Positions 9,264 through 35,790 of a stretch of DNA of 35,790 nucleotides are shown one piece after another. Each line of letters begins with the position of its first letter. Within the stretch, counting starts at the first letter, position 1. The notes under the pieces are model-generated. The model had not been told where the DNA came from and made no database searches. It worked only from the letters and a program-made list of their open reading frames with translations. Origin of the DNA: an uncultured Clostridia bacterium. GTDB lineage: Bacteria > Bacillota > Clostridia > Christensenellales > CAG-917. Both the position numbers and the translations under genes were made by a program. The stretch lies in assembly GCA_947629635.1 (NCBI GenBank), contig CANREO010000003.1, positions 1 through 35,790 on the forward strand, read 5' to 3'.

Positions 9264-9297
9264 CATCTTGTGTTTGATTTTTTTTTTGATTTTTTGC

Positions 9298-9325
9298 TTG
9301 AAATATTTATTTATTTTGCTATAAT
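9298..9325 (+). promoter_or_regulatory. sigma-A promoter for dnaA (leaderless geometry)
   Basis: TTGAAA-16bp-TATAAT with TG extension; 7 nt to ATG; no SD. Confidence 0.7.
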
Positions 9326-9332
9326 TCTACAC

Positions 9333-10694
9333 ATGGCAAATATTGAGGAATTATGGGCGCAAGCCAAAAATCAGCTCTCGATTTCGATGAATATTACCGT
9401 TTACGAAGTATGGGTGGAAAAACTTAATCCCGTATGTTTCGTAGACAGTTCTCTCGTGCTTTCAACCATTACCGTTTCCGCAAAGCGCACCATCGAAGCC
9501 CGCTATCTCGACACTATACGAGAAGCTGTTTCCTCTGTAAATCCGTTGATCACAGATGTCATTATTACCACGGAAAACGAAAAGGAAGGCTATTTGCAAA
9601 AGCAGTCCGTTTATGTGGAAAAAGACGGTTTTAAGCCGCTTGAAAGCATAAACAAAAACAAGAACGCTTTCCTTGAAAAATACACTTTCGACAACTTTGT
9701 GGAAGGCAAATCCAACGCTTATGCATTTGCAGCTTGCAAAACCGTCGCGGACGAGCCGGGTGTAAAATATAATCCTTTATTCATTTATTCCGGAGTCGGC
9801 TTGGGAAAGACCCACCTTTTGCACGCCATAGGTAATCATCTTCAAAAACATGCGCCTTATAAAAAAGTGCTTTACGTAAGCGCGGAAACTCTTATGAACG
9901 AACTTATATCCGTCATAAGAAACAAGTCTATGGACGAAAATAATAAATTTCGCGAAAAATACCGTTCTGTCGACGTTTTGATGATAGACGATATTCAATT
10001 TTTGATAGGTAAAGAGGCTACACAAGAGGCGTTTTTCCATATATTCAACGATCTATATTACAACAATCGTCAAATCATCATAACTTCCGACAGAGCTCCT
10101 AAAGATCTTACAACGCTCGAAGAAAGGCTGCATACGCGTTTCAGTTGGGGGCTTACTGTCGACATTCAAGCCCCGGATATGGAAACGCGCGTCGCAATAT
10201 TAAAAACAAAAGCAGCCCAGGCAAAATTTACGCTTTCCGACGAAGTGGCTCATTTTATTGCCGAAAAATCAACTTCAAATATACGCGAAATGGAGGGCCT
10301 GCTAAATAAAATAGTATTTTTCAGCTCTCTTACAAATACCGTAATCAACACTAAAGAGATGGCAAACGAAGCTCTGAAAGATTATATTGACGATAAAAAG
10401 GATGCTATTGACGCAAGCGATATTATCGACGCGGTTTGCCAATACTTCAAAATTTCATCCGCAGATATATTTTCAAAGAAAAAAACAAAAAATATAGTTG
10501 AACCGAGAATGGTGGCAATATATCTGATCACAGACCTTCTTCCCATACCTTTGGTGCAGATAGGCGAAATGTTTGGTGGTAGAGATCATACGACCATCAT
10601 TCATGCAAGAGACAAAATAAGCGACGAAATTAAATCAAATCCGAGAATGAAAATTATTGTCATGGATTTGAAAAACATGCTTCTTAATAGATAA
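9333..10694 (+). CDS. dnaA: chromosomal replication initiator DnaA
   Basis: YTFDNFV, YNPLFIYSGVGLGKTHL, IDDIQF, RFSWGL, NIREMEG, FGGRDHTTIIHA; start set at MANIEELW (9333). Confidence 0.98.
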   Translation: MANIEELWAQAKNQLSISMNITVYEVWVEKLNPVCFVDSSLVLSTITVSAKRTIEARYLDTIREAVSSVNPLITDVIITTENEKEGYLQKQSVYVEKDGFKPLESINKNKNAFLEKYTFDNFVEGKSNAYAFAACKTVADEPGVKYNPLFIYSGVGLGKTHLLHAIGNHLQKHAPYKKVLYVSAETLMNELISVIRNKSMDENNKFREKYRSVDVLMIDDIQFLIGKEATQEAFFHIFNDLYYNNRQIIITSDRAPKDLTTLEERLHTRFSWGLTVDIQAPDMETRVAILKTKAAQAKFTLSDEVAHFIAEKSTSNIREMEGLLNKIVFFSSLTNTVINTKEMANEALKDYIDDKKDAIDASDIIDAVCQYFKISSADIFSKKKTKNIVEPRMVAIYLITDLLPIPLVQIGEMFGGRDHTTIIHARDKISDEIKSNPRMKIIVMDLKNMLLNR

Positions 10695-10720
10695 AAAACG
10701 GTGATTTACACCGTTTTTTT
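10693..10720. terminator. bidirectional terminator between dnaA and dnaN
   Basis: AAAAAACGGTG-ATTTA-CACCGTTTTTT. Confidence 0.85.
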
Positions 10721-10733
10721 GTTTTATTTTCTT

Positions 10734-11834
10734 TCAACCTATAACTCTCAAAGGCAAGATGAGATACAACCAATTCGGATCTTCTCCGTTAATTATAGAA
10801 GGAGCTGTGGAAGTCGTAAAGTTGAGTTTTATTACTTTATCCTCTATCGCTCTCATGCAGTCTATAAGATATTTTGAGTTAAATCCTATCGTAAGATCTT
10901 TTCCTTTGAGACCTATCGCCATTTTTTCGTTTATCTCGCCGTCATCGCTGTGCGCGTAAAGTTGAAGTATATCTTCTTTTATTTCCATTTTAACACATGA
11001 TCTCTTGTCAAGTCTATTTATGAGAGCAGCGCGATCTATTGCTTCTTCAAAAGCCTTTTTATCAAGCGTTACTTCAGTGGTAAATACATTTGGTATTATC
11101 TTTTCGTAATTTATATATTCCTCACTGATAAGCCTTGTCACTATCTTTGTATGGAAGAGATCTATCATTATATAATTATCTTCAACATATACAGTGATCG
11201 TCTCCTCTCCTTCGTCTATAAGACGCGCTACTTCCGCCATACTCTTTGCCGGAACGACTATCCTGTCTATAACTCCGTTGTTTTTTATCATGGTTTTTGT
11301 AAGCGCAAGCCTATATCCGTCAGACGCAACAGCTTCGACCTCATCATCTTTTATATTCATGCAAACGCCGCGAAGCGTCGGACGCGCGTCATCGACAGCA
11401 ACGTTGAAAATTACTTTATTTATGATTTGTTTGAGGTCTTTTTTCAACACTATAAAACTTTTTTGAGTGTCTATTTCTTTGAAAATGGGGTATTCCTCAT
11501 TGTCAAAACAGTTTATAAACAGTTCGCTGTCCATATAACGGATATTTAGTCTGGACGGATTTGTGCCATCAAGTTCTACTTCCTCATGTTCTATCTTTTT
11601 TGCATAATCCGCAAACAATTTGCCGGGAACAACGATTTCTCCCTCAATCAAAACTTGAGCGTTTATCTTTTTTTCTATTGCCAACTCCAAATCGGTGGCA
11701 AAAAGAGTAAGAGTGTCGCCTATGGCAGTAATTTTAACTCCATCCAAAATGGGAGTTGTCCTTTTTATAGGCAAAGCTTTCACAACTTTTGCCAGTGCGT
11801 CGCTCAACTCATTTCCTTGACATACAACTTTCAT
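10734..11834 (-). CDS. dnaN: DNA polymerase III beta sliding clamp
   Basis: 366 aa; ATDLE, RPTLRG, VASDGYRLA, IGFNSKYLID, YLILPLR. Confidence 0.97.
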   Translation of the reverse strand: MKVVCQGNELSDALAKVVKALPIKRTTPILDGVKITAIGDTLTLFATDLELAIEKKINAQVLIEGEIVVPGKLFADYAKKIEHEEVELDGTNPSRLNIRYMDSELFINCFDNEEYPIFKEIDTQKSFIVLKKDLKQIINKVIFNVAVDDARPTLRGVCMNIKDDEVEAVASDGYRLALTKTMIKNNGVIDRIVVPAKSMAEVARLIDEGEETITVYVEDNYIMIDLFHTKIVTRLISEEYINYEKIIPNVFTTEVTLDKKAFEEAIDRAALINRLDKRSCVKMEIKEDILQLYAHSDDGEINEKMAIGLKGKDLTIGFNSKYLIDCMRAIEDKVIKLNFTTSTAPSIINGEDPNWLYLILPLRVIG

Positions 11835-11859
11835 ATTTCGCCTATATCTAATTATTATT

Positions 11860-12040
11860 TTTCTTTAATAATGATAACATAAATAAGCAGTGTTGACAAG
11901 TGGAAAATAATTTTCAAACACAACACTTTGTTATATTAAAATTTATGTTCCCTATATTTAGTAATATTTAATTTTAATGGCTGTGGATAATTTAATTTTA
12001 TTATCAACATTTAATATACCTTTTTTAAAGTTGTCCACAA
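11860..12040. other. putative oriC (DnaA boxes, DnaA-trios, AT-rich)
   Basis: Perfect box TGTGGATAA at 11982-11990. Near-matches TTATCAACA at 12001-12009 and TTGTCCACA at 12031-12039. Overlapping tandem degenerate boxes at 11891-11907 lie next to a GCAG spacer and TAA-TAA-TGA-TAA-CAT-AAA-TAA trios, upstream of dnaN. Confidence 0.8.
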
Positions 12041-12042
12041 GT

Positions 12043-13071
12043 CTATATTGAAAGAGGATCAAATCCGAATATTAGGGAGAATATATAAGATATAAAAACA
12101 CTGATTATAAGCATCAATAATAATACTTTCATATTTCTTTTTATGTTTTTAGCGTCTTTGAAAAGTATCATAAATGCAACGCCGGCATTCATTGTCAAAC
12201 CTCCGAGAGTAGCGCCGAAACCCAAACCTCCGAATATATAAAGTTCGCTTATTATTATAGATGAGGCGCAATTTGGGATTGATCCCACGATCACCGTTAG
12301 AAGAGGAGCAAGATATTTATTTGATGACAAAAATTCTATTATTTTCTCTTGTCCAACATTATAGATAATAATGCCGAAAATAATATTTATAATAAATACA
12401 TATATAAAGATCTCAAGCGAATGAAGCAAAGGCTTTATCAAAAATTTGTCTATATTTGCCCTTTTATTGTCTTTCAATTGCTTTTTATGTGCATAATCGC
12501 TCAATATTCCGTTGCCGGTTATTTCCGTTTTTATAATATTATGTTTATTGCAATCGCTGTTTAGACATTCATCGCAGTCGCATATGTCGCTTTTTTCACA
12601 TTTGCTTATAAGTTCCGCGCCTTCGCAATGCATAAGCTTTATAGCATATTTGTCTTCGCAATGTTCGAGATGATGACGTACGGACTTTTTGTCTTTTATA
12701 AAAATTAAATCGATTAAATAACCGAATAGAATGCCTAAAACAAGTTTTAACGCAAGTAGCGGCAATACGTGCAGCGCTTTATTCGGGTAACTCAGAAAGA
12801 CCGGCAGAGCTTCATCTGAAGTGGCGATAAAAACGGCTATCAGAGTACCGAGTGTGACGTGATGTTTTTTGTACAGATCGGCGACTACAACCGAAAATCC
12901 GCACTGTGGCAAAAGGGAAACGGAAGCGCCTATCAATGGCGCAAATTTTCCGTAAAGACGGATTTTTTCGGACAGCTTCGGCTCTATAAAAGCTATGATG
13001 TATGTGAATACAGCCACCACAGCCAATAATTTAAGGCTGTCTATAAACGAGTCTAATATAACGTCTCCCAT
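12043..13071 (-). CDS. putative heavy-metal/manganese permease (DUF2899-like) with His/Cys-rich loop
   Basis: Multi-TM protein. LLPQCGFS...TLGTLIAVFIATSDEALP and GSIPNCASS form duplicated PxC motifs; central HHLEHC...CDCDEC loop. Confidence 0.7.
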   Translation of the reverse strand: MGDVILDSFIDSLKLLAVVAVFTYIIAFIEPKLSEKIRLYGKFAPLIGASVSLLPQCGFSVVVADLYKKHHVTLGTLIAVFIATSDEALPVFLSYPNKALHVLPLLALKLVLGILFGYLIDLIFIKDKKSVRHHLEHCEDKYAIKLMHCEGAELISKCEKSDICDCDECLNSDCNKHNIIKTEITGNGILSDYAHKKQLKDNKRANIDKFLIKPLLHSLEIFIYVFIINIIFGIIIYNVGQEKIIEFLSSNKYLAPLLTVIVGSIPNCASSIIISELYIFGGLGFGATLGGLTMNAGVAFMILFKDAKNIKRNMKVLLLMLIISVFISYIFSLIFGFDPLSI

Positions 13072-13310
13072 AGATGTGATTTATTATAAATCATTTTCCG
13101 AAAAAATCAACAAATCAAGCGGATTAAAGATATATTGCGCTTATATTTTTAATGACGCCTAGTTTTATTTGCTTGAAAAATATTATATGTAGACAGTACA
13201 AGTTTAACATTCGAAAAATTTAGTTTAAATTATTCGCCCTCTCTTGACAGTTATGTTAAATTATGTTTAACTTTTGTTAAGATAGAATAATATTAAGCGG
13301 AAAATATGAT

Positions 13311-14627
13311 ATGGGAAGAGAAAAGTGCAAGACGAAAAAAAATTTGATTTTGACTGCGGTGATTTTAGGTATTTTAGCTTGTTTGTCTGTAATAATAATC
13401 GTGCCTATTTATTATCTCACCTACCAAACTACAGATCCGTTTGAAAGTTTCGATCTTTCCGTCGTAGATATAGAAAAAACCAACGCTATCTATTCCGTTG
13501 TGGAAAAAAGCAATAAATACTTAGCTCATCCCGATCTTGTATATAAGGACGGAAAATATATAACGATGTATGTTTTGGGACACGGGAAAGGGCAAATAAT
13601 CACCAAAATATCCGGAAACGGCGTCAATTGGGGAGATAGAGTACAAGATACGCCGAAAACATGGGAAAAATCACAGGAAACTCCAACTTTGTATGAATTG
13701 AAATTTGTTGACGAAAACGGCGAATTTACGCAAAAAAGCGCGCTTATAATGATTTCGGGTTGTCCGAAATGGCCCGGAACAACGTATAAGGCAGACGGTT
13801 TTCAATTTTCGATTTCCGAGGACGGCGGAGCAAATTGGACGGAATTCGAAAAATGCTACGGCAGGGCTTGGGGAGACGCATATGATTGTATCGTGGCAAT
13901 GTCGTCCTTGACGCAGATCAAGGAAAACGGTCGATTTGTCAACAAATGGATGGGCACTTTTCATGACAGATCGTTTATAAATTACAAGACATATCTCACT
14001 TTTGAAGAAAGTTACGATGGCAAATTGATAGCGCATTGGACCAAGCCGGAAAAACTTTTCGACAATCATAGGGAAGATGAACTCAAATATAATATTTGCG
14101 AAGTCGAAATAATACGCACTCCTTCAGAAGACGGTAGCGCTCTCACCGGCAACACGCTTATTTTGCTTGCGCGCGCAAACAAACATGAGACGGGCTCGTT
14201 GATCCTTTTTTCTAACGACGAGGGAGAAACGTGGAGCAAGCCGCGCGAACTTCCGGCGGAGCTTACCGGCGACAGACACAAAGCGGAATATGATCCGATT
14301 TCAAAAAAACTGATCGTAAGTTTCAGACAAGTGTGGCACGGAATGTATAAAAACGCTTTCGGGCAAGGACCGAAAGCCGTGGGAGCAGGTTGGCTAGGTT
14401 GGGTAGGTACGTTTGAAGATCTGTTGAGCTACCGTACGGAAAGCCCTACGATCGGCGAAAAAGTATTGCTGCTCGGCAAAGATTACGGAGGAAAAATAGA
14501 TTGCGGCTACAGTGGCACGGCATGTGTGGACGGCAGATTTACGTTGGTTGCATATGGGCAGTTTGACAAAGACGCCAAAGTGCCATATATAAGGAGCGTG
14601 TCGTTTGCGCTTTCGGACGTTTTATAA
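13311..14627 (+). CDS. membrane-anchored BNR/Asp-box beta-propeller (sialidase-like) protein
   Basis: N-terminal TM; Asp boxes SEDGGANW and SNDEGETW, degenerate SGNGVNW; C-terminal DCGY. Confidence 0.75.
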   Translation: MGREKCKTKKNLILTAVILGILACLSVIIIVPIYYLTYQTTDPFESFDLSVVDIEKTNAIYSVVEKSNKYLAHPDLVYKDGKYITMYVLGHGKGQIITKISGNGVNWGDRVQDTPKTWEKSQETPTLYELKFVDENGEFTQKSALIMISGCPKWPGTTYKADGFQFSISEDGGANWTEFEKCYGRAWGDAYDCIVAMSSLTQIKENGRFVNKWMGTFHDRSFINYKTYLTFEESYDGKLIAHWTKPEKLFDNHREDELKYNICEVEIIRTPSEDGSALTGNTLILLARANKHETGSLILFSNDEGETWSKPRELPAELTGDRHKAEYDPISKKLIVSFRQVWHGMYKNAFGQGPKAVGAGWLGWVGTFEDLLSYRTESPTIGEKVLLLGKDYGGKIDCGYSGTACVDGRFTLVAYGQFDKDAKVPYIRSVSFALSDVL

Positions 14628-14887: not shown

Positions 14888-17800
14888 TCAATTGCCGTAT
14901 CCGTATAGCTTTTCCATATTGATGACGAGACCTTGCGAGTCCTTGAACTCGACGCTCAAAATGAAGTTGGGGATTTTTACGCCGGCAAGGGCAGTGCGAA
15001 CTTCCGCCGGAACGCCGTCGACGTTTGCCCAGGCGATGAGATCGTCCATCGTCATATCGGCGAGCAGTTTTTGCAATTGCACGCCCATAGTGTTCAGAGT
15101 CGCTTCGCGAATAAACGGATTGTCGAACATGGAATCGGGCGTGATATCAATGATTTGTTCCATTGTGGCGTTGGATACTGCCGTATTCAAGTCCTTCATG
15201 GTCCCACCGGCAAGCAAGCGCAATATTGCCGCGCTCTTTGCGCGCACGGTGTTTGTGACTTTGCGTATTTTGCTTGTATCGAGCTCAGTCTCGAAACCGC
15301 CGTTTTTCTCATAATATATTTCGTTGCGAGTTGCGATATAACCCTTTTTGAGGGAGAAACGCATTTGCCCATCGTGATTGGGGTTTGCATTGCTGTATTT
15401 GACGTATTCGCCGTTTATAAATACATATTCTCCGTTGGCATCCGCTATATATACATTTTCGGCGTAGTGTTTGGAGTAGACGAGTCCGTCGGTGCTAACA
15501 CCGTCTCCGAGCTGCTCCTTTACGACGATAAACGAGTTGTTTTCGGCTGTTTCTTTACGATACATTTGCAGATCCCAGAAGGAAATATACGTATCGTTAG
15601 AGGACAAATATGCCGTCTTCTTGCCCAATACGTCGACATAAAGATTTTGCCCGTCTTTATATTTGTAGCCCATAAATACGGTGTTTTCGTTGTTGGCTTT
15701 GCCCTCGGTCACACTGCTTGCGTCGCTTTTTACTTCGCGATAGTACAACTTGGCGTCGTTGCCTTCCTGTTGCGTTTTGGTCACGTTTGCGGCAAGATAG
15801 GCGCAAAGCGCCGGATTGAATACCATATTGTCGTTTTTAGCGTCGTAATAGTAAATATTGTTTTTAGCAAGATATTCGCCCGCCGCCGCTCTCGCTTTCA
15901 AATCATCGGTATTAAAGTCCAGACCGAAAGAGGGGATGCTTACCATATCGTTTGGTGTTGTGGGAACTTTTTTGTAGACGAAATAGAATTCCGATCTGTC
16001 GTTCGTAAGTTCGGATGATTCGGGATCCAACGCGACATAGCGCTCGTTTGTCTTTGTATACTTGCCGAGATTGTCATATAGATATATGACTTCTTTGCCG
16101 TTTTCTTTCGCGTCTCCTTCGGTCCATTCCACAAAATACAGAGAATCTTCGGACGGATCAGATTCCGAGGCAAAGGATTCTTCCACTTCGACGGCATAGG
16201 CGTCGTAAATGTCGATGATCTCGCTGAGCAACATATCGTCAATGATCTTGCCGAGCGACGGACCCATGCTGTCTATATTGACATACGCGAGCTTTCTCAA
16301 CACGGCATTCCCCGTTCCCGCGGATTTGATATAATACAGCGAGTTGTCGTCATGATGTTGATTGATATAGTCCTGGCTTGCGAGGCGGAATAGGCCGTCT
16401 TCTTCTGCGTAATAGAACAGACGTTGTTCGTTTCCGTCCTCGTCTACAAAATAGTAGTTGGTCGCGCTTTCGCCTTCTTGGCGGCTCTGAAGCCCCGTGG
16501 CTGCTGCGTAGATGTCTGCGTCTATATCCATGACGTCAAACACTTGCAGATTGCCGAACGCGGACGAAAAGTCGCCGAGCGAAGTTGCTGCAAAGCGTTG
16601 CAATATCTTCGAGGAAGCTTCGTCTTTGGGCGTGCGATCGTATCTCTCTTTGCCGACATGATCCGGATTTGCCGGGTTAAACAGGGTATAATAGCATTTT
16701 TCCCCTTCGGTATCGGTGGCGTTTGCAAGAACGATTTTGACATATTTGCCGTTTTCGTTTGGCGTATAGTCGTCGTAAACTATGTCTATCATGTCTCCGA
16801 TCGCAAGCGTGTCGGTGACGGTGGCAAGCTCATTTATCTTTGTCTTTCTTGCCTTAAGAGTTTTCATGAGTTTGGACGCGTTGTCGCCGATCTCAATGAC
16901 GTCGGAGATCTTGAGTTCGTCTATCTTTTCGTCGAACTCATCCAGTTTTACGTTCAACTTGGCAAGCGATTGCATAATTTGCGCGGAATCCGCGTCTATG
17001 CGCATGAGCTCGCTTATATAAAGCTCGTTCATGATAGTGCCGAGTTCGGGGATGGTGCAGCCGCGGCGCGCGATGGATTGCATCGCGATCGCAGTGTCGG
17101 CGGCTTGCGTCAAATTATATCTTTGCATCTCCGCCTGCGTTTCGTCTTCTTCGTTGTCTCGGGTGTAGTAGTAAACGCGGACGTATTCGCCGTCATCGGC
17201 TTGTTGATAATCGCCTTCGTCGAGTTTATTGTAGCGCTTTACGTAGTCGAAGTCCGCGGATCCCGGCTCCGGATTGTGTGAAGGCGCATAGGCGTTGTAT
17301 TTGACGTAAACGGGTATTCTGACGTACATGCCATCGGGCGCCGCGGTATATTCGTCGTAATTGACCTCGATTATTTCGCCGAGAGTGAGTTTGTCCGCGA
17401 CGGATGCCAATTCGCTTATCTTGCAACCTCGTTTTGCAAGCGATTTCATGATCAGCGAAGTGTCTTCGCCGTCGACGTCGAAGAGGTCTCCCACCTCCAG
17501 TTCGGAGATCCTGTCGCCGATATTTGACAGCGTGCAGTCCGCGATCGCGCTTAAAATTTTGGGAGATGATTCGTCTATAGATACGACGTCTTTGATCTTG
17601 ATGTTGTCAAGCAAACCGTCGGCGTTGCGAAGGTCGCTTATACTCATATAGTTGATGGTCTGCAAGACGGCTTGCGAGGTGCCGACATGCGTGCGGAAAT
17701 AGTATTTGCCGTCAGTCGGATCTGTAATCTCCGTGAGTTTGCTGCTTTTTGTGATCGTGCCTTCGAATCCGAATTTCGGACTTTCCGTCAGCGCTTCTTC

Positions 17801-19000
17801 TTGAGTATAATAGCCTACGCGGTCAATGTTTACAGTGCCCGACGTCCTGTCTATTGCGGCGACGTGCGAGGCGTCGGCATAGCTTTTGCCTTCGGGGTCA
17901 ACGATAGTTTCCAAAGAGATGAATCCTTTGTCTATTATGTCGTCGGCGTTTGCGCTTGCAAGACTGTTGGAATACGCGAGCACGCAGAGATCCGCCGCGT
18001 CGCGATTGTTGTCAATGTTTGCGTCATAGCGCCTGTATATCATGTGACGATAGTATGTTTCGGTCGGAGCTTCCTCTGTAGCGGCATAGCAGGAATTGTC
18101 GACGACGTATTTGTAAGAGGTGACGCCGTCCTTTTCTATGGATTTTTTGATGTAGCGCAACTCTCTTATGTCAAGCCCTGTTGAACCGTCCGCCAGAGTT
18201 TTTCCGCCTGCGATATAAGTCTCTGCCCCCGGCGTGATATCGAGCGAAGTAAGTTTGTCCGATGGAATTTCGACATATGCGTCGTCCGAATCCTGCTCCG
18301 CGGCAAGATACAGATCATTGACGCCAACCGGCACATACGTATCGGTGTCGCCGTTTAGGAAAGTGCTTATCCTCAGCGCGTCTATTACGCTGCCGAAACT
18401 GTTGAGAGGAATGTCCTGGAGGGCGGCGATCATGTCGCTGCCAGAGGCGAGATCGATGTTGAATTTGTCTTTTATGGCGCGCAACGTCAAACCGTCGCCG
18501 CTGAAAGACTTCATGATGTTGTCAATGGCGGAAGGGATGCCGCTGTCCAGATTTTCTTCGAGAACGGGAAGATTGTAAGAGGCAAAATCCAGCCCCGTAA
18601 GATTGCCTATGTCGTTTAATGTGAATGAATCAAGTACTATTGACAAATTGCCGATAATCTCGGTCAGAGGCGTGTTGTAAAGGTCTTCTTTTGTCGTAAA
18701 GTCAATGCCGCTCACGCCGTTGAAAAGGGCTATGCCGTAGTGTTCGTACAAAACTTTCAAAGAAAGCTCGTGAAAATTTTGATAATCGTTCCATACGCCT
18801 TTTATTGCTTCAAGCAATGTTTCGCCGTACAGTTTGCTGTCGGGACGTATTACCTCGGCGTCGGTGAGGGAGCTTTGCAGCTGCCCCACAGTCATAGAAG
18901 TGCCTATGGCAAGGACGGCGCCGCCAATCGCAAGCACAAGCAACACGATGCCCAATACAATGCCCAATACAAAAGTCAAAGTACACCGAAAAACCTTCAT
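14888..19000 (-). CDS. large (about 1370 aa) acidic membrane-anchored repeat protein of unknown function
   Basis: N-terminal hydrophobic helix; recurring about 34-36 aa helical repeat interrupted by Tyr-rich inserts; AAGGAG RBS before ATG at 19000. Confidence 0.85.
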   Translation of the reverse strand: MKVFRCTLTFVLGIVLGIVLLVLAIGGAVLAIGTSMTVGQLQSSLTDAEVIRPDSKLYGETLLEAIKGVWNDYQNFHELSLKVLYEHYGIALFNGVSGIDFTTKEDLYNTPLTEIIGNLSIVLDSFTLNDIGNLTGLDFASYNLPVLEENLDSGIPSAIDNIMKSFSGDGLTLRAIKDKFNIDLASGSDMIAALQDIPLNSFGSVIDALRISTFLNGDTDTYVPVGVNDLYLAAEQDSDDAYVEIPSDKLTSLDITPGAETYIAGGKTLADGSTGLDIRELRYIKKSIEKDGVTSYKYVVDNSCYAATEEAPTETYYRHMIYRRYDANIDNNRDAADLCVLAYSNSLASANADDIIDKGFISLETIVDPEGKSYADASHVAAIDRTSGTVNIDRVGYYTQEEALTESPKFGFEGTITKSSKLTEITDPTDGKYYFRTHVGTSQAVLQTINYMSISDLRNADGLLDNIKIKDVVSIDESSPKILSAIADCTLSNIGDRISELEVGDLFDVDGEDTSLIMKSLAKRGCKISELASVADKLTLGEIIEVNYDEYTAAPDGMYVRIPVYVKYNAYAPSHNPEPGSADFDYVKRYNKLDEGDYQQADDGEYVRVYYYTRDNEEDETQAEMQRYNLTQAADTAIAMQSIARRGCTIPELGTIMNELYISELMRIDADSAQIMQSLAKLNVKLDEFDEKIDELKISDVIEIGDNASKLMKTLKARKTKINELATVTDTLAIGDMIDIVYDDYTPNENGKYVKIVLANATDTEGEKCYYTLFNPANPDHVGKERYDRTPKDEASSKILQRFAATSLGDFSSAFGNLQVFDVMDIDADIYAAATGLQSRQEGESATNYYFVDEDGNEQRLFYYAEEDGLFRLASQDYINQHHDDNSLYYIKSAGTGNAVLRKLAYVNIDSMGPSLGKIIDDMLLSEIIDIYDAYAVEVEESFASESDPSEDSLYFVEWTEGDAKENGKEVIYLYDNLGKYTKTNERYVALDPESSELTNDRSEFYFVYKKVPTTPNDMVSIPSFGLDFNTDDLKARAAAGEYLAKNNIYYYDAKNDNMVFNPALCAYLAANVTKTQQEGNDAKLYYREVKSDASSVTEGKANNENTVFMGYKYKDGQNLYVDVLGKKTAYLSSNDTYISFWDLQMYRKETAENNSFIVVKEQLGDGVSTDGLVYSKHYAENVYIADANGEYVFINGEYVKYSNANPNHDGQMRFSLKKGYIATRNEIYYEKNGGFETELDTSKIRKVTNTVRAKSAAILRLLAGGTMKDLNTAVSNATMEQIIDITPDSMFDNPFIREATLNTMGVQLQKLLADMTMDDLIAWANVDGVPAEVRTALAGVKIPNFILSVEFKDSQGLVINMEKLYGYGN

Positions 19001-19042
19001 AATCACTCCTTATTTCGTATATGCGCGCCGAGGCGCGCACGA

Positions 19043-30773: not shown

Positions 30774-31226
30774 TCATAGATCCTCTTCCTCTTCTTCCTC
30801 TTCGTCTATATCCTCGATGTCGTCTATATTGCCTATTTCTTCAAAATCGTCGGACTGAGCTTCTTCCTCTTCGAAGTCTTCTTCCTCCTCTTCTTGAAGT
30901 TGGGAGAGAGAAACTTCGCCGTCTTCTTCCGCAATCGGCTCATCGTCGACGTAGTCCTGCCAATCGTCGCCCTCCTCGGACTCTTTATCAATGTTCTTTT
31001 GGGCTTGTTCGGCGCGACAAGTAGCGCAAATATCCTCATCTGCTTCAAGATAGTTGACCTTGCAGACGGGACAGATCCTGTCTTCGAGGATAAATTCATC
31101 CTCATCGTCTTCCAGCAAACTTATTGTGCTTGCCTTGCCCAATTCGGCCTTGCACACTTCGCAAAGCTCTTCTTTTTCATTTATCCAATTCAGCTCACAG
31201 CGTGGACATTTTTTATATTTTCCCAT
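30774..31226 (-). CDS. small acidic protein with two tandem 4-Cys Zn-ribbon-like repeats
   Basis: CPRCELNWINEKEELCEVC and CPVCKVNYLEADEDICATC; D/E-rich tail; GAGGT RBS. Confidence 0.8.
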   Translation of the reverse strand: MGKYKKCPRCELNWINEKEELCEVCKAELGKASTISLLEDDEDEFILEDRICPVCKVNYLEADEDICATCRAEQAQKNIDKESEEGDDWQDYVDDEPIAEEDGEVSLSQLQEEEEEDFEEEEAQSDDFEEIGNIDDIEDIDEEEEEEEDL

Positions 31227-31573
31227 TTACACCTCTGTACGGATTGGCTTTCATATATTATATTTATATATAACCATTCTGTAAACTGATTTTTTGCATT
31301 TTTTGCAAAAAAATTCAATCGGCTCTATCTTGTAGCGATTAGTCGACGATTTTCAACATATTGTGGTTTGAAAAAATGGTGAAAATAATTATTGAAAATC
31401 TTTCAAAAAAGGCTTAAAATACGCTCGAATTGACAGAAATATAAAGAATTCACCTGTACATAATTGAATAAGACAAATGTTAAAAAATTACGACAAAATA
31501 CGATTTTTTTACCGTATTTTTGCCCCAAACCAAAAATTTATAATATGCTATCATTTGTTTGCGGAGGAATCCT

Positions 31574-32323
31574 ATGAATAAAACAATTTTGATTGCTGAT
31601 GACAATGTTGCCCTATGTACGAGCCTCAAAGAGTTTTTTGAGACAAAGGATGGGTATGAAGTAGTAGGCGTCGCGCACAACGGCGTCAGCGCTCTCGACC
31701 AGATCGAAAATCTGCGCCCCGATTTTATTTTGCTCGACATCGTTATGCCGGAGCTTGACGGATTCGGAGTGCTCAGCGCGCTTGAAAGTAAAAAGTCGGT
31801 GGTAATTATGATGTCGCAGCTTGCGACGGACGGATTCGTGCAAAAGGCGATGCAATATGGAGCAAGTTATTTCCTCGCCAAGCCTTTTGACTTCGGCATG
31901 GCACAGAAACTGTTGGACGAATTGTCGTCGCCGTCTATGGCGCCTCAAAAGCCTACGGCCGTGACCAAACGTAACAAGTCTTTGGATGAGAAGATATCGA
32001 ATCTTTTTATTTCGGTCGGTATTCCGGCGCATATCAAAGGATACCAGTTTTTGAGAGAAGCGATCAAGATGACCATCGAAACGCCCGACATCATAAATTC
32101 AATCACAAAGCGGCTGTATCCCAGCATTGCCGATTTATATCAGACTTCGCCGTCGAAAGTGGAGCGCGCGATCAGACATGCCATAGAGGTGGCCTGGAAC
32201 AGAGGTAAGATCGAAAATATCAACAACGTTTTCGGCATCAAAATATATTCTCCGAACGAGAAACCCACGAACGGCGAATTTATCGCCCTAATAGCGGACA
32301 AATTGCTGTTGGAGTCCGCATAA
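31574..32323 (+). CDS. spo0A: sporulation master regulator Spo0A
   Basis: Receiver domain (ADDN, LDIVMP, KPF) plus GIPAHIKGYQFLREAI...TKRLYP...PSKVERAIRHAIEVAWNRG...KPTNGEFIA; GGAGG RBS. Confidence 0.97.
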   Translation: MNKTILIADDNVALCTSLKEFFETKDGYEVVGVAHNGVSALDQIENLRPDFILLDIVMPELDGFGVLSALESKKSVVIMMSQLATDGFVQKAMQYGASYFLAKPFDFGMAQKLLDELSSPSMAPQKPTAVTKRNKSLDEKISNLFISVGIPAHIKGYQFLREAIKMTIETPDIINSITKRLYPSIADLYQTSPSKVERAIRHAIEVAWNRGKIENINNVFGIKIYSPNEKPTNGEFIALIADKLLLESA

Positions 32324-33198: not shown

Positions 33199-33228
33199 AA
33201 AAAAAGACCGAAGCAAGAAGCTTCGGCC
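33199..33228 (-). terminator. intrinsic terminator after the trxB-like gene
   Basis: GGCCGAAGC-TTCTT-GCTTCGGTC-TTTTTTT. Confidence 0.85.
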
Positions 33229-33232
33229 GATA

Positions 33233-34162
33233 TCATTTTTCCGCATTTATTTTATCGACGTAAGCGCAAGCGGCATAGGCTGCTACAGTCCCATCGGCGG
33301 CGGCAGTCGTCAATTGCCGTATCTTCTTTGTGCGGCAGTCGCCCGCGGCAAATACGCCATCACAGGAAGTGACGCAACTTTCGTCGGCAATCACGTAGCC
33401 CTTGTCGTCCAAATTGACGAGTTCCTTAAAAGGAGCATTTTGCGGGATCTGTCCGACGCAAATAAAAGCGCATTTGCAATCGACAAAATGCTCGGTATGC
33501 GTTTTGGTGTTTTCGAAACGCAATCCCGAAAGTTCGTCTGTGCCCAAAAATTCTTTAAGTTCGATTTCGTAAGTAATGTCAACGTTGTCGCGCGCTTTTA
33601 CAAGATCGACAAGAGCTTTGTCCGCAAACAATCTGTCAAACAGCGCGCATATGTGCACACTCTTGCAATAGCCTGACAGCAAGAGCGCATATTGCAACGC
33701 GGTATTGGCGTCTCCTATGACCGCGACGTCCTCGTCTTTATAAAACGCACCGTCGCACAGCGCGCAATAGCTGACGCCTTTGCCCGTCAACTCTTCTTCT
33801 CGCGCGACGCCGATATGGCGGTGTTTGCAGCCTGTGGCAAGAATAAGCGAAGTACATTCATAAGTTGCATAATCCGTAGTTACAACAAACTTTTTGCCGG
33901 TTTTAACTGCCGATTTTGCGTTTTCAAGTTCGATATCCGCACCCCAGTCGACGATTTGTTCGTACAGTTTGTCCATGATTTCCGCGCCTGCGGTCTGCTT
34001 GTATGAGGGAAAGTTTTCCACTCTCGGAGAGAGCGCTATTTGTCCGCCGAAGGTATCGCTTTCAAGCACAAGCACGCTTTTGCCGGCTCTCAGACAATTG
34101 AGCGCGGCGGTCATGCCGGCAGGGCCGGCGCCAATAATGATAATGTCGTATTTCAGTGACAT
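33233..34162 (-). CDS. trxB: thioredoxin reductase-like flavoprotein with altered NADPH-binding motifs
   Basis: IIGAGPAG, GGQ, VENFP, ATG, GVSYCALCDG, GVFAAGD, QLTTAAADG. Confidence 0.85.
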   Translation of the reverse strand: MSLKYDIIIIGAGPAGMTAALNCLRAGKSVLVLESDTFGGQIALSPRVENFPSYKQTAGAEIMDKLYEQIVDWGADIELENAKSAVKTGKKFVVTTDYATYECTSLILATGCKHRHIGVAREEELTGKGVSYCALCDGAFYKDEDVAVIGDANTALQYALLLSGYCKSVHICALFDRLFADKALVDLVKARDNVDITYEIELKEFLGTDELSGLRFENTKTHTEHFVDCKCAFICVGQIPQNAPFKELVNLDDKGYVIADESCVTSCDGVFAAGDCRTKKIRQLTTAAADGTVAAYAACAYVDKINAEK

Positions 34163-34176
34163 GGGTGCTCCTTATT

Positions 34177-34209
34177 AAACAGAGGACGGGTTGTGCCCGT
34201 CCTCTGTTT
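34177..34209. terminator. perfect 14-bp hairpin between nrdD and trxB (terminator or mRNA stability element)
   Basis: AAACAGAGGACGGG-TTGTG-CCCGTCCTCTGTTT. Confidence 0.6.
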
Positions 34210-34217
34210 GATGGGTT

Positions 34218-35790
34218 TTATCTTACACTTTCGATATATGCTTTTATGTTGCTCGCGTTTTCGTAAACAACCAATTTTTTGCCTTTTGGCACGAGCAGGG
34301 TGGGCGCTTTCTTTACGCCGTAGGCTCTTGTAATATCCGCATTGTCCTCCGCGTCTATGACCGTATATTTGATGCCTGCCTTGTCAAGCATGCTCTTGGC
34401 CATCTTGCAGTTTGGGCAGGTCTTGGTAGTGAAAATGAGGATGCCGTCGAGTTTTGATGCGTCGACTTTTGTGGGCTCTGTTGCAGGAATTTCATTTTGC
34501 GGCGCGGCGTTTTTTATCTCCTGTTTGCCTCTGACCATGGGCGCCTCGTCGGTGCACACGAATTCGCTTATCGGCTTGCCGTGATATTGCGAAGTGGCAA
34601 TGTCGTAAACTTTGCGCTCTTTAAATTCCGCCACCTTGCCGTCATTCCAATTTTGAACGGGACGATAATATCCTGTGATGCGGCTGTAGACTTCCGTCTT
34701 CTTGCCGCAGATGGGGCAAACGTATTGCTCGCCTTCCAGATACCCGTGATCAGCGCAAATGGAATATGTCGGGGAGAGTGTATAGTAGGGCAGTTTATAA
34801 TTTTCGGCGATTTTTCTGACGAGGTTTGCCGCCGCCTGCCAACTGTCGAGCTTTTGCCCGAGGAAGGCATGGAAAACAGTGCCCGACGTGTATAGCGTCT
34901 GCAATTCGTCTTGAATGTCGAGCGCGGAGAAGATGTCCGACGTATAGCCCACCGGCAGGTGCGAACTGTTGGTATAATAAGGCGTGTTGTCGGCGCTCTT
35001 TGCGCAGATGATGTTGGGATATTTTTCTCTGTCGTGTTTTGCAAGCCTATACGACGTGCTTTCGGCCGGAGTCGCTTCGAGGTTGTAAAGGTCGCCGTAT
35101 TCTTCTTGATAGTCGCTCAACTTGTTGCGCATGAAGTTGAGTGTCTTCTTGGTGAACTCCTGCGCTTCGGGATGCGTGAGGTCTTTGCCAACCCAACGGG
35201 CGTTGAGGCAGGCTTCGTTCATTCCCACGAGTCCGATTGTGGAAAAGTGGTTGCTGAATGTGCCGAGATATCTCTTTGTGTAGGGGTACAGACCTTCGTC
35301 AAGCAACTTTGTGATGACGTTGCGTTTGATTTTCAGAGAGCGCGCCGCAATGTCCATAAGGTGCTCGAGCTCTTTGAAATATTCCTCTTCGGTTGTGGAA
35401 ACATAGGCTATGCGAGGCATATTTATTGTTACGACGCCAACGGATCCGGTGGATTCGCCGCTGCCGAAGAAACCGCCCGATTTCTTGCGGAGCTCTCTCA
35501 AGTCCAGCCTCAGGCGGCAGCACATGCTGCGCACGTCGCTCGGCTCCATATCGCTGTTGATATAGTTGGAGAAGTAGGGCGTGCCGTACTTCGAAGTCAT
35601 GGTGAAGAGCAGACGGTTGTTTTCGGTGTCGGACCAATCGAAGTCCTTTGTGATCGAATATGTGGGAATGGGATATTGGAAACCTCTTCCGTTTGCATCG
35701 CCCTCTATCATGATTTCGATGAACGCTTTATTTATCATGCGCATCTCGTCGACGCAATCTTTATACTTGAAGTCCATATCCTTGCCGCCT
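34218..35790 (-). CDS. nrdD: class III anaerobic ribonucleoside-triphosphate reductase with C-terminal glutaredoxin/NrdH-like domain (5' end outside the window)
   Basis: FQYPIPT, RSMCCRL, TGSVGVVTIN, YNLEATPAES, SGTVFH, CADH...CPIC, YSRITGYYRP glycyl-radical loop; then IFTTKTCPNC...GVKKAPTL. Confidence 0.95.
   Translation of the reverse strand, partial: GGKDMDFKYKDCVDEMRMINKAFIEIMIEGDANGRGFQYPIPTYSITKDFDWSDTENNRLLFTMTSKYGTPYFSNYINSDMEPSDVRSMCCRLRLDLRELRKKSGGFFGSGESTGSVGVVTINMPRIAYVSTTEEEYFKELEHLMDIAARSLKIKRNVITKLLDEGLYPYTKRYLGTFSNHFSTIGLVGMNEACLNARWVGKDLTHPEAQEFTKKTLNFMRNKLSDYQEEYGDLYNLEATPAESTSYRLAKHDREKYPNIICAKSADNTPYYTNSSHLPVGYTSDIFSALDIQDELQTLYTSGTVFHAFLGQKLDSWQAAANLVRKIAENYKLPYYTLSPTYSICADHGYLEGEQYVCPICGKKTEVYSRITGYYRPVQNWNDGKVAEFKERKVYDIATSQYHGKPISEFVCTDEAPMVRGKQEIKNAAPQNEIPATEPTKVDASKLDGILIFTTKTCPNCKMAKSMLDKAGIKYTVIDAEDNADITRAYGVKKAPTLLVPKGKKLVVYENASNIKAYIESVR

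Follow-up and report, generated by a model that had tools for sequence, protein, structure and literature searches.

A class III ribonucleotide reductase with a fused redoxin domain adjoins a thioredoxin reductase-like gene lacking NADPH motifs in uncultured Clostridia

The window analysed here is the whole of contig CANREO010000003.1 (35,790 nucleotides), taken from a 1.09 Mb assembly of an uncultured Clostridia bacterium (GCA_947629635.1; Christensenellales, CAG-917) that comprises 133 contigs and is 85% complete. One end of the window carries the 3′ part of nrdD, the gene for a class III ribonucleotide reductase (RNR), which is extended at its C-terminus by a glutaredoxin (Grx)-like redoxin domain. 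It is followed on the same strand by a gene for a flavoprotein that resembles low-Mr thioredoxin reductases (TrxRs) and in which both NADPH motifs have been replaced. The elements of the locus, in the order in which they are read, are the following.

34218-35789, minus strand: nrdD, 3′ part (523 codons and stop), class III RNR, identified with Pfam and NCBIfam
35511-35525, minus strand: finger-loop motif MCCRL (Met and Cys pair), from motif position
35058-35081, minus strand: LEATPAES with the active-site Glu, from motif position
34698-34763, minus strand: Cys/His zinc-ribbon region, before RITGYY
34665-34682, minus strand: glycyl-radical motif RITGYY, from motif position
34443-34604, minus strand: linker of 54 aa (residues 396-449) from NrdD core to redoxin domain, delimited as the gap between the Pfam NRDD and Glutaredoxin matches
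34221-34442, minus strand: C-terminal glutaredoxin/NrdH-like domain of thioredoxin fold, identified with Pfam
34407-34418, minus strand: redoxin active site CPNC
34171-34215, minus strand: perfect 14-bp hairpin in the nrdD-trxR spacer, from folding against shuffles
33233-34162, minus strand: trxR, gene for a low-Mr TrxR-like flavoprotein of 309 aa, GDANTA type, from open reading frame (ORF), Pfam, alignment and AlphaFold2
34115-34132, minus strand: FAD motif GAGPAG of TrxR (residues 11-16)
33755-33766, minus strand: redox motif CALC of TrxR (residues 133-136)
33698-33715, minus strand: GDANTA of TrxR, at the GGGxxA site
33623-33646, minus strand: ALFDRLFA of TrxR, at the HRRxxxR site
33206-33228, minus strand: intrinsic-terminator-like hairpin of 9 bp (6 G-C pairs) with a T7 run, just past the trxR stop

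The nrdD reading frame is open at the contig end (position 35789) and closes with a stop codon at 34218-34220. The 523-aa piece matches the Pfam NRDD domain (PF13597, 5.9e-129) over residues 8-395 and scores 676 bits on NCBIfam NF006126, above the cut-off of 548. The N-terminal 212 aa of the protein, ATP-cone included, were found elsewhere in the assembly (C73:2-637), and the intervening ~80 residues are missing from it. The NRDD domain, the RITGYY motif, whose Gly we take to be the radical site, the MCCRL motif and an NrdG2 activase encoded elsewhere in the genome (contig C35; 206.8 bits, above the cut-off) identify the enzyme as a class III NrdD. No other RNR was found in the assembly, where searches for a large subunit of class I or II detected none at 85% completeness. 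The C-terminal domain matches Glutaredoxin (PF00462; 1.1e-9, 38.7 bits against a cut-off of 22.9) over residues 450-489 and also PF00085 (4.8e-6, 27.0 bits against 23.5). All curated NCBIfam redoxin models scored it under their cut-offs, among them NrdH TIGR02194 (24.7 against 85.75) and the YruB-family model (30.2 against 88.55).

These features are shared by related proteins. Our comparison set consisted of 49 linked NrdD proteins, all of one type. RITGYY is present in 49/49, and MCCRL and LEATPAES are found in 46/47 and 48/48, respectively, of those covering the corresponding region. The redoxin CxxC, which sits 55-77 aa past the glycyl motif in relatives, reads CPNC in 44 proteins, CPKC in four and CAKC in one. 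In an alignment of 13 fused redoxin domains, C25, P26, N27 and C28 are invariant, as is APTL in the cis-Pro region.

The adjoining flavoprotein matches Pyr_redox_2 (2.5e-42) and scores 299.5 bits on TIGR01292, the NCBIfam TrxR equivalog, under its cut-off of 343.45. It has the two-domain fold, the GxGxxG motif and the CxxC of low-Mr TrxRs, and lacks GGGxxA and HRRxxxR. AlphaFold2 predicts its structure with confidence (pLDDT 89.4), and the top Foldseek matches of the model are canonical low-Mr TrxRs (TM 0.84). In the HMMER alignment to the solved NADPH TrxR 5uwy, CALC faces CAVC, GDANTA faces GGGDSA and ALFDRLF faces HRRDQLR. A sequence-only reading of the window had described the MCCRL, LEATPAES and CPNC elements of NrdD with a linker of about 50 aa, the CALC TrxR 55 bp downstream on the same strand, GDANTA at exactly 33698-33715 and CALFDRLFA at the HRRxxxR site. 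All of this was found again in the DNA, base for base, with the linker set at 54 aa and with icALFDRLFA placed against vvHRRDQLRA by the 5uwy alignment.

The replaced motifs are a fixed trait of the protein type. Among the 120 best database matches (59-100% identity), GDANTA is kept in 118/120 and CA[LIV]CDG in 120/120, while HRR occurs in 0/120. The FAD motif is also conserved down to 59% identity. Database names for these relatives read merely "FAD-dependent oxidoreductase". As the fold is intact and GDANTA is so widely kept, the change of motif is not decay. As type-specific we counted residues shared by at least 85% of the GDANTA type and carried by no more than 10% of canonical-motif members. 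Ten positions qualified: L24, K87 and F92, and seven in the pyridine-nucleotide site (D151, A152, Y158, L174, F175, F179 and D181). In the pyrophosphate loop one Gly is changed to Asp and one to Ala, so that the second Gly of GxGxxA is an Ala with an adjacent Asp, and the acidic residue (E/D) after the loop has become a Tyr. At the 2′-phosphate site, His-Arg-Arg...Arg has become Ala-Leu-Phe...Phe, so that neither the His nor any of the three Arg remains. The first Gly and last Ala of GxGxxA are retained, as is the Asp after the former HRR. Taken together, the pocket changes look like a closing or refitting of the site, not drift, and the GDANTA lineage probably no longer uses NAD(P)H.

The two genes are separated by a 55-bp spacer (34163-34217). 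Its hairpin has a ΔG of -28.4 kcal/mol (z -5.7), and 0/200 shuffles fold equally well. Downstream of it there is only UUU, and then the trxR ribosome-binding site AAGGAG; the hairpin may act as a partial terminator or serve in stabilisation or processing of the RNA. On the opposite strand, where there is no gene, it resembles a strong terminator. Most relatives, unlike the present genome, have the two genes abutting or overlapping, and the intergenic gap is at most 16 nt in 10/13 GDANTA-type loci by approximate start calls. Because the terminator-like hairpin and T7 run end it after trxR, the unit consists of two genes. The DNA of the locus occurs in public sequencing runs from rabbit and other gut metagenomes, and no RNA run is among the public runs listed for it.

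Conservation of the gene pair was examined from both sides. A scan for TrxR loci was run with the clade alignment as query on one genome per species, and 80 of the 594 confirmed loci were kept for analysis. Among the 22 GDANTA-type loci, NrdD-Grx immediately precedes the TrxR gene in the same orientation in 17, one shows a Grx fragment at a contig edge, four are truncated where the contig stops, and no locus speaks against the linkage. A second type keeps GGGxxA and has QNLxxxTGE in place of HRR (QNL type); 18 of its 21 loci are linked to NrdD-Grx, one is cut and two are unlinked. A further 13 NrdD-Grx-linked TrxRs carry fully canonical NADPH motifs. In the reverse search, NrdD was compared with 200 sampled genomes of the class Clostridia and matched in 77. 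The fused type is present in 44/200, including this genome (at least 65% identity, frames mostly 784-868 aa), and the other 33 have only an NrdD type of 49-57% identity and ~700-745 aa. The fused redoxin was found in 29/29 of the best NrdD loci, and in 22 of these a TrxR lies directly downstream (14 QNL, 1 QNL-like, 4 canonical and 3 GDANTA). The linkage proposed from the sequence alone is thus conserved, and the proposed survey of GDANTA-type TrxRs with NrdD-Grx fusions reveals a module that is wider than the type, which supplies three of the 22 downstream TrxRs.

The NrdD-Grx and TrxR module occurs in many Clostridia, Bacilli and Lentisphaeria metagenome-assembled genomes (MAGs). The exact pattern GDANTA[x]QY was found in 4/401 sampled genomes of the class, all of the same order as the window; this count is a floor, since the exact pattern missed a GDGNTA variant (genome G168). 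Genomes with the GDANTA pattern are small (0.9-1.7 Mb).

A maximum-likelihood tree was built from 84 TrxRs with both motif regions removed and rooted on a TRi-type paralogue (L109). The NrdD-linked TrxRs form one clade of 59 leaves (support 100/98), and in 49 of these, the window among them, NrdD-Grx immediately precedes the TrxR gene in the same orientation; five more are cut by contig ends, two of them showing a Grx fragment. The sister clade holds 23 housekeeping TrxBs, including the canonical TrxB of this genome (90/92). Within the NrdD-linked clade, the GDANTA type is monophyletic (22 leaves, 100/97), the QNL group comprises 21 members and one odd row (86/95), and the TrxRs with canonical motifs are basal. 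The loss of both NADPH motifs, which the sequence-only reading had noted for a single gene, is thus a property of a whole monophyletic lineage. On the plain reading of this tree, a TrxB duplicate would have been committed to RNR at a stage when it was still NADPH-dependent, and two rebuildings of the nucleotide pocket would have followed.

The QNL lineage reads GGGN(S/T)A and (V/I)QNLxxxTGE, is the commonest NrdD-Grx partner (14/22 linked loci) and occurs in Lentisphaeria MAGs as well. Its loci are L028, L033, L035-L039, L041, L043, L045, L054, L056-L060, L064 and L072 in the TrxR scan, and L120-L122, L125, L129, L131, L132, L134, L136, L139-L142 and L145 in the NrdD scan. It is a candidate for specificity towards NADH or another donor. 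Inside the GDANTA clade, L081, from a Bacillales MAG, reads GGSDTALQY ... CMRRNTY; with two Gly and two Arg back in the pocket, it may have partly reverted or may represent an intermediate. The root sequence L109 (G404:C1:110467-111303) is a 279-aa TRi-type TrxR with 5nii as best PDB match (191.8 bits). It comes from an Acutalibacteraceae isolate that also has a canonical-motif NrdD-linked TrxR, its only TrxR above the TIGR01292 cut-off.

Elsewhere in the genome, the canonical TrxB, on contig C2 (C2:20383-21264), carries GGGNTA and HRRDSLRA and scores 346.2 bits on TIGR01292, above the cut-off. The assembly yielded no free frame for a thioredoxin or glutaredoxin, the only thioredoxin-fold frame detected being the one fused to NrdD. 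In 5/5 GDANTA-type relatives, four of which are 99-100% complete, the NrdD-linked TrxR is accompanied by another TrxR and by one or two free thioredoxins. Because complete relatives have such genes, the present genome probably has a free thioredoxin gene in sequence that did not assemble. The same gene content points to a general thioredoxin system with a separate one dedicated to RNR, and the presence of a general system beside the pair fits a dedicated relay. Pyruvate:ferredoxin oxidoreductase (PFOR) is present, as is a 56-aa 2x[4Fe-4S] ferredoxin of clostridial type (gene at C2:41428-41628), and a flavodoxin is represented by a weak match only. A ferredoxin-fed line is permitted by PFOR and ferredoxin; their presence does not point to it. 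The commonest neighbour in 14 GDANTA-type loci is an NrdG-like radical SAM gene (6/14), the others being unrelated.

We propose that nrdD-grx and its TrxR-like neighbour constitute a two-gene module and provide the class III RNR with a disulfide-reducing line of its own. A donor would reduce the FAD of the dedicated TrxR, and electrons would pass from the FAD to the CALC dithiol. This dithiol would in turn reduce the CPNC domain tethered to NrdD by the 54-aa linker. The CPNC domain would then reduce cysteines of NrdD, most likely the finger-loop Cys-pair disulfide formed at each turnover, as in NrdD2. The TrxR lineage is a derived one and is probably fed by a donor other than NAD(P)H; our best guess is a low-potential carrier, ferredoxin or flavodoxin, fed by PFOR. 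The parts of this proposal differ in strength. From synteny, clade structure and the parallel general system, it is very likely that the gene pair constitutes a dedicated line from TrxR through redoxin to RNR. The complete explanation, in which this relay is dedicated and the remodelled TrxR takes a donor other than NAD(P)H, we regard as somewhat probable. Ferredoxin or flavodoxin as that donor is a tentative suggestion. We consider it slightly more doubtful still that the GDANTA enzyme is an independently evolved, pyridine nucleotide-independent flavin disulfide reductase with one client, the NrdD redoxin, which couples the ferredoxin/flavodoxin pool to dNTP synthesis without NADPH or formate. 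The sequence-only reading had proposed a relay from ferredoxin or another donor through TrxR and redoxin to RNR; its dedicated line is well supported, and its ferredoxin is no more than permitted by the gene content. In a complex prediction, TrxR with the CPNC domain reached a median score of 0.43 and one control 0.25, and the margin was not reached.

Several observations weigh against the proposed relay. In the best loci of the NrdD scan, 7/29 NrdD-Grx genes have no TrxR within 1.5 kb, and 5/54 assessable members of the TrxR clade lack an adjoining NrdD-Grx (L047, L049, L050, L061 and L085). Absences from this genome are weakened by the incompleteness of the assembly. As to the donor, the module has no linked ferredoxin or flavodoxin gene at 14 GDANTA-type loci (40 neighbour ORFs). 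The pocket changes take away positive charge, which is not expected if an acidic ferredoxin docks there. Moreover, judged by bit scores to PDB entries, the GDANTA type is no closer to the solved ferredoxin-dependent flavin TrxRs (FFTRs) than is the canonical TrxB of the same genome. The TrxR scores 131.7 bits with 6gnc, 112.6 with 6gna and 110.3 with 5j60, compared to 212.9 with the canonical 5uwy; the corresponding values of the canonical TrxB for 6gnc, 6gna and 5j60 are 114.8, 121.7 and 154.5. Of the sequence-only reading, the loss of the NADPH motifs is borne out, and a kinship with clostridial FFTRs is not supported (113-132 bits, against 213 for the canonical TrxR). Since there is no specific FFTR kinship, any ferredoxin dependence would be independently evolved. 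Two other TrxR identities were considered and rejected: TR3/dcTR1, as VSY and not VHY precedes the CxxC, and TRi, as there is no TQ/NGK. Finally, two observations concern the chemistry of NrdD. The thiol-dependent NrdD2 type is recognised by a double Cys, a Glu and the absence of Met; the first two are present here, and the Met of MCCR is kept. True pyruvate formate-lyase (PFL) was found in 24/41 sampled genomes with fused NrdD against 11/33 with unfused NrdD only, counts that are descriptive and confounded by relatedness of the genomes.

These last two points bear directly on an alternative in which formate is the turnover reductant, and the redoxin and TrxR serve in activation or repair, keeping the zinc-ribbon or other Cys reduced for NrdG or rescuing the enzyme after oxygen. 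The retained Met, conserved with MCCRL in the relatives, is linked to formate chemistry (PMC9669993), and most double-Cys class III enzymes are described there as keeping it, apparently with components for either formate or thioredoxin. A PFL gene even adjoins nrdD in locus L020, a GDGNTA variant, and an activating role of thioredoxin has been described for the E. coli enzyme (PMC4390871). However, the Glu of the LEATPAES type, present in all 48 relatives, is tied to thiol-dependent class III RNRs (PMC9669993, PMC4390871) and, with the Cys pair, marks thiol-dependent turnover. No PFL was found in this assembly, nor in 3/3 sampled GDANTA-type relatives that are 100% complete. A tethered, stoichiometric redoxin with its own reductase would also be a heavy outlay for occasional repair. 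We consider formate as turnover reductant unlikely. Of the thiol-type reductant that the sequence-only reading had deduced from the NrdD pattern, the Cys pair and Glu hold, and independence from formate is not supported, given the retained Met and the PFL counts. Likewise, the fused module as a replacement for absent formate was rejected at the family level by the PFL counts, so that it is not a formate substitute across the family.

The other serious alternative, which we rate as equally improbable, accepts the dedicated chain and makes it an ordinary one: the GDANTA TrxR would still accept a pyridine nucleotide in its remodelled site, NADH being the most plausible. Its descent from NADPH-type NrdD-linked TrxRs agrees with this, as do the retention of the whole nucleotide-binding domain, confidently folded in the model, the first Gly and last Ala of GxGxxA and the Asp after the former HRR, and the lack of any linked donor gene. 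HRR-less TrxRs that prefer NADH have been published (T. maritima, DvTR3; PMC5627308). However, Ala with an Asp beside it takes the place of the second Gly, the residue in contact with the pyrophosphate, and three Arg and a His are replaced by Leu, Phe, Phe and Ala; all of these changes are invariant or nearly so in the clade. The sister lineage with GGG...QNL, in which HRR alone is lost, looks the more natural NADH candidate. That the TrxR-like gene is a decaying duplicate without catalytic role is very unlikely indeed. The score under the TIGR01292 cut-off and the absence of both NADPH motifs might suggest it, but the frame is open, the model confident and the synteny conserved, and the FAD motif, the CxxC and the new motifs persist through the 120 homologues.

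The seven NrdD-Grx loci without a TrxR (L123, L124, L126, L127, L128, L130 and L143) come from genomes G180, G099, G096, G070, G158, G038 and G011, in which PFL was found in 0/7. It was found in 12/14 QNL-type genomes. The contrast may be an effect of kinship.

Other features of the window lie outside the module. A Spo0A gene, identified with Pfam, is present at 31559-32323 and assigns the window to the Clostridia. A 150-aa frame (30774-31226, minus strand) has N-terminal CxxC pairs and a very acidic, Asp/Glu-rich tail, and no Pfam match. The genes dnaA (9270-10694, plus strand) and dnaN (10734-11834, minus strand) are placed tail to tail, not in the usual same-strand order, and beside them (10000-14000) the G+C content falls from ~48% to 36%. 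This stretch may be an origin region, a rearrangement or an assembly join. Two long frames, of 1372 aa (14888-19006, minus strand) and 438 aa (13311-14627, plus strand), have no Pfam match at 1e-5.

If the GDANTA enzyme does couple the ferredoxin/flavodoxin pool to dNTP synthesis, it would draw on the same low-potential pool that must reduce the NrdG activase, and the supply of DNA precursors in these small-genome gut Clostridia would need neither NADPH nor formate. HRR, GGG...QNL and GDANTA on one operon scaffold would then constitute a natural series of donor switches. With three versions of the cofactor site on the same scaffold, the family is a ready comparative system for donor change in the TrxR fold. 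The way in which class III RNRs are re-reduced has been settled for few enzymes, with formate, thioredoxin or NrdH; here, a large NrdD subfamily (about one fifth of the 200-genome sample of the class) comes with a redoxin and, in most cases, a reductase of its own. The module also offers a test of thiol versus formate chemistry in enzymes with MCCR plus Glu, a question left open in PMC9669993. TrxR biology gains a lineage without NADPH motifs, of an origin separate from FFTR, TRi and DFTR, with a defined physiological client. A literature search did not find the NrdD-Grx and TrxR module as a widespread unit, with prior mention possible in Wei 2014/2015 and Buey 2018, nor the RNR-dedicated TrxR clade with its two rebuilt-site lineages, for which prior mention is likewise possible.

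Several known systems share parts of this arrangement. In Facklamia ignava Grx::NrdB, a fused Grx reduces a class I RNR (PMC6187632). The covalent glutaredoxin-fold domain is common to both, whereas the class of the enzyme and the glutathione-linked reduction differ. One grx::nrdD fusion, of Lachnospiraceae bacterium TWA4, is listed from RefSeq in the same paper, in an entry that describes no TrxR partner (PMC6187632). Among atypical low-Mr TrxRs are DvTRi (5nii, with TQ/NGK), the T. acidophilum TrxR (3cty), TR3/dcTR1 (VHY) and DFTR, which uses F420 (PMC5627308). Like the GDANTA type, they are TrxB duplicates of anaerobes that have kept FAD and CxxC in spite of an altered NADPH pocket. The combination of GDANTA with ALFDxxF, and VSY before the CxxC, sets the present enzyme apart, as does a score of 100.8 bits with 5nii; the account of the atypical TrxRs in PMC5627308 reports no RNR linkage.

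The NrdD2 of Neisseria bacilliformis is a thioredoxin-dependent class III RNR that operates with TrxA, TrxB and NADPH (PMC9669993, PMC4390871, PMC9176816). It shares with the present system a glycyl-radical NrdD with finger-loop Cys pair and active-site Glu, a thioredoxin-fold protein and a flavin TrxR. However, the redoxin is here a C-terminal extension of NrdD, the adjoining gene encodes a dedicated TrxR paralogue without NADPH motifs, and the finger loop reads MCCR, not SCCR. In Methanosarcina barkeri, NrdD3 works with an NrdH-like redoxin and a ferredoxin:disulfide reductase (PMC9176816). The logic would be the same, leading from a low-potential donor through a dedicated disulfide reductase and a Grx-like redoxin to a class III RNR. 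The M. barkeri ferredoxin:disulfide reductase is an iron-sulfur enzyme of the FTR type and not a flavoprotein. NrdD3 is further described as having neither the Met nor the Glu (PMC9669993), and its redoxin is a separate protein.

Finally, NADPH-independent enzymes of the TrxR fold have been described in Clostridia and cyanobacteria (PMC10880999, PMC8154056, PMC12796991, PMC5627308), and our FFTR/DTR references were taken from Clostridium (PDB 6gna, 6gnc and 6gnd) and Gloeobacter (PDB 5j60 and 6xtf). FFTRs use ferredoxin and not NADPH as reductant, have a very negative FAD potential (PMC12796991) and are found in Clostridia beside NADPH-type TrxB (PMC10880999). The low-Mr TrxR fold, FAD, the CxxC and the lack of GxGxxA and HRRxxxR are common to FFTRs and the enzyme described here. 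However, the latter is ~20 aa longer than the clostridial FFTRs (309 aa against 288-294 aa) and has no C-terminal Trp tail. It is derived from within the NADPH-type NrdD-linked TrxRs, and its partner would be the fused Grx-like domain rather than a WCGPC thioredoxin.

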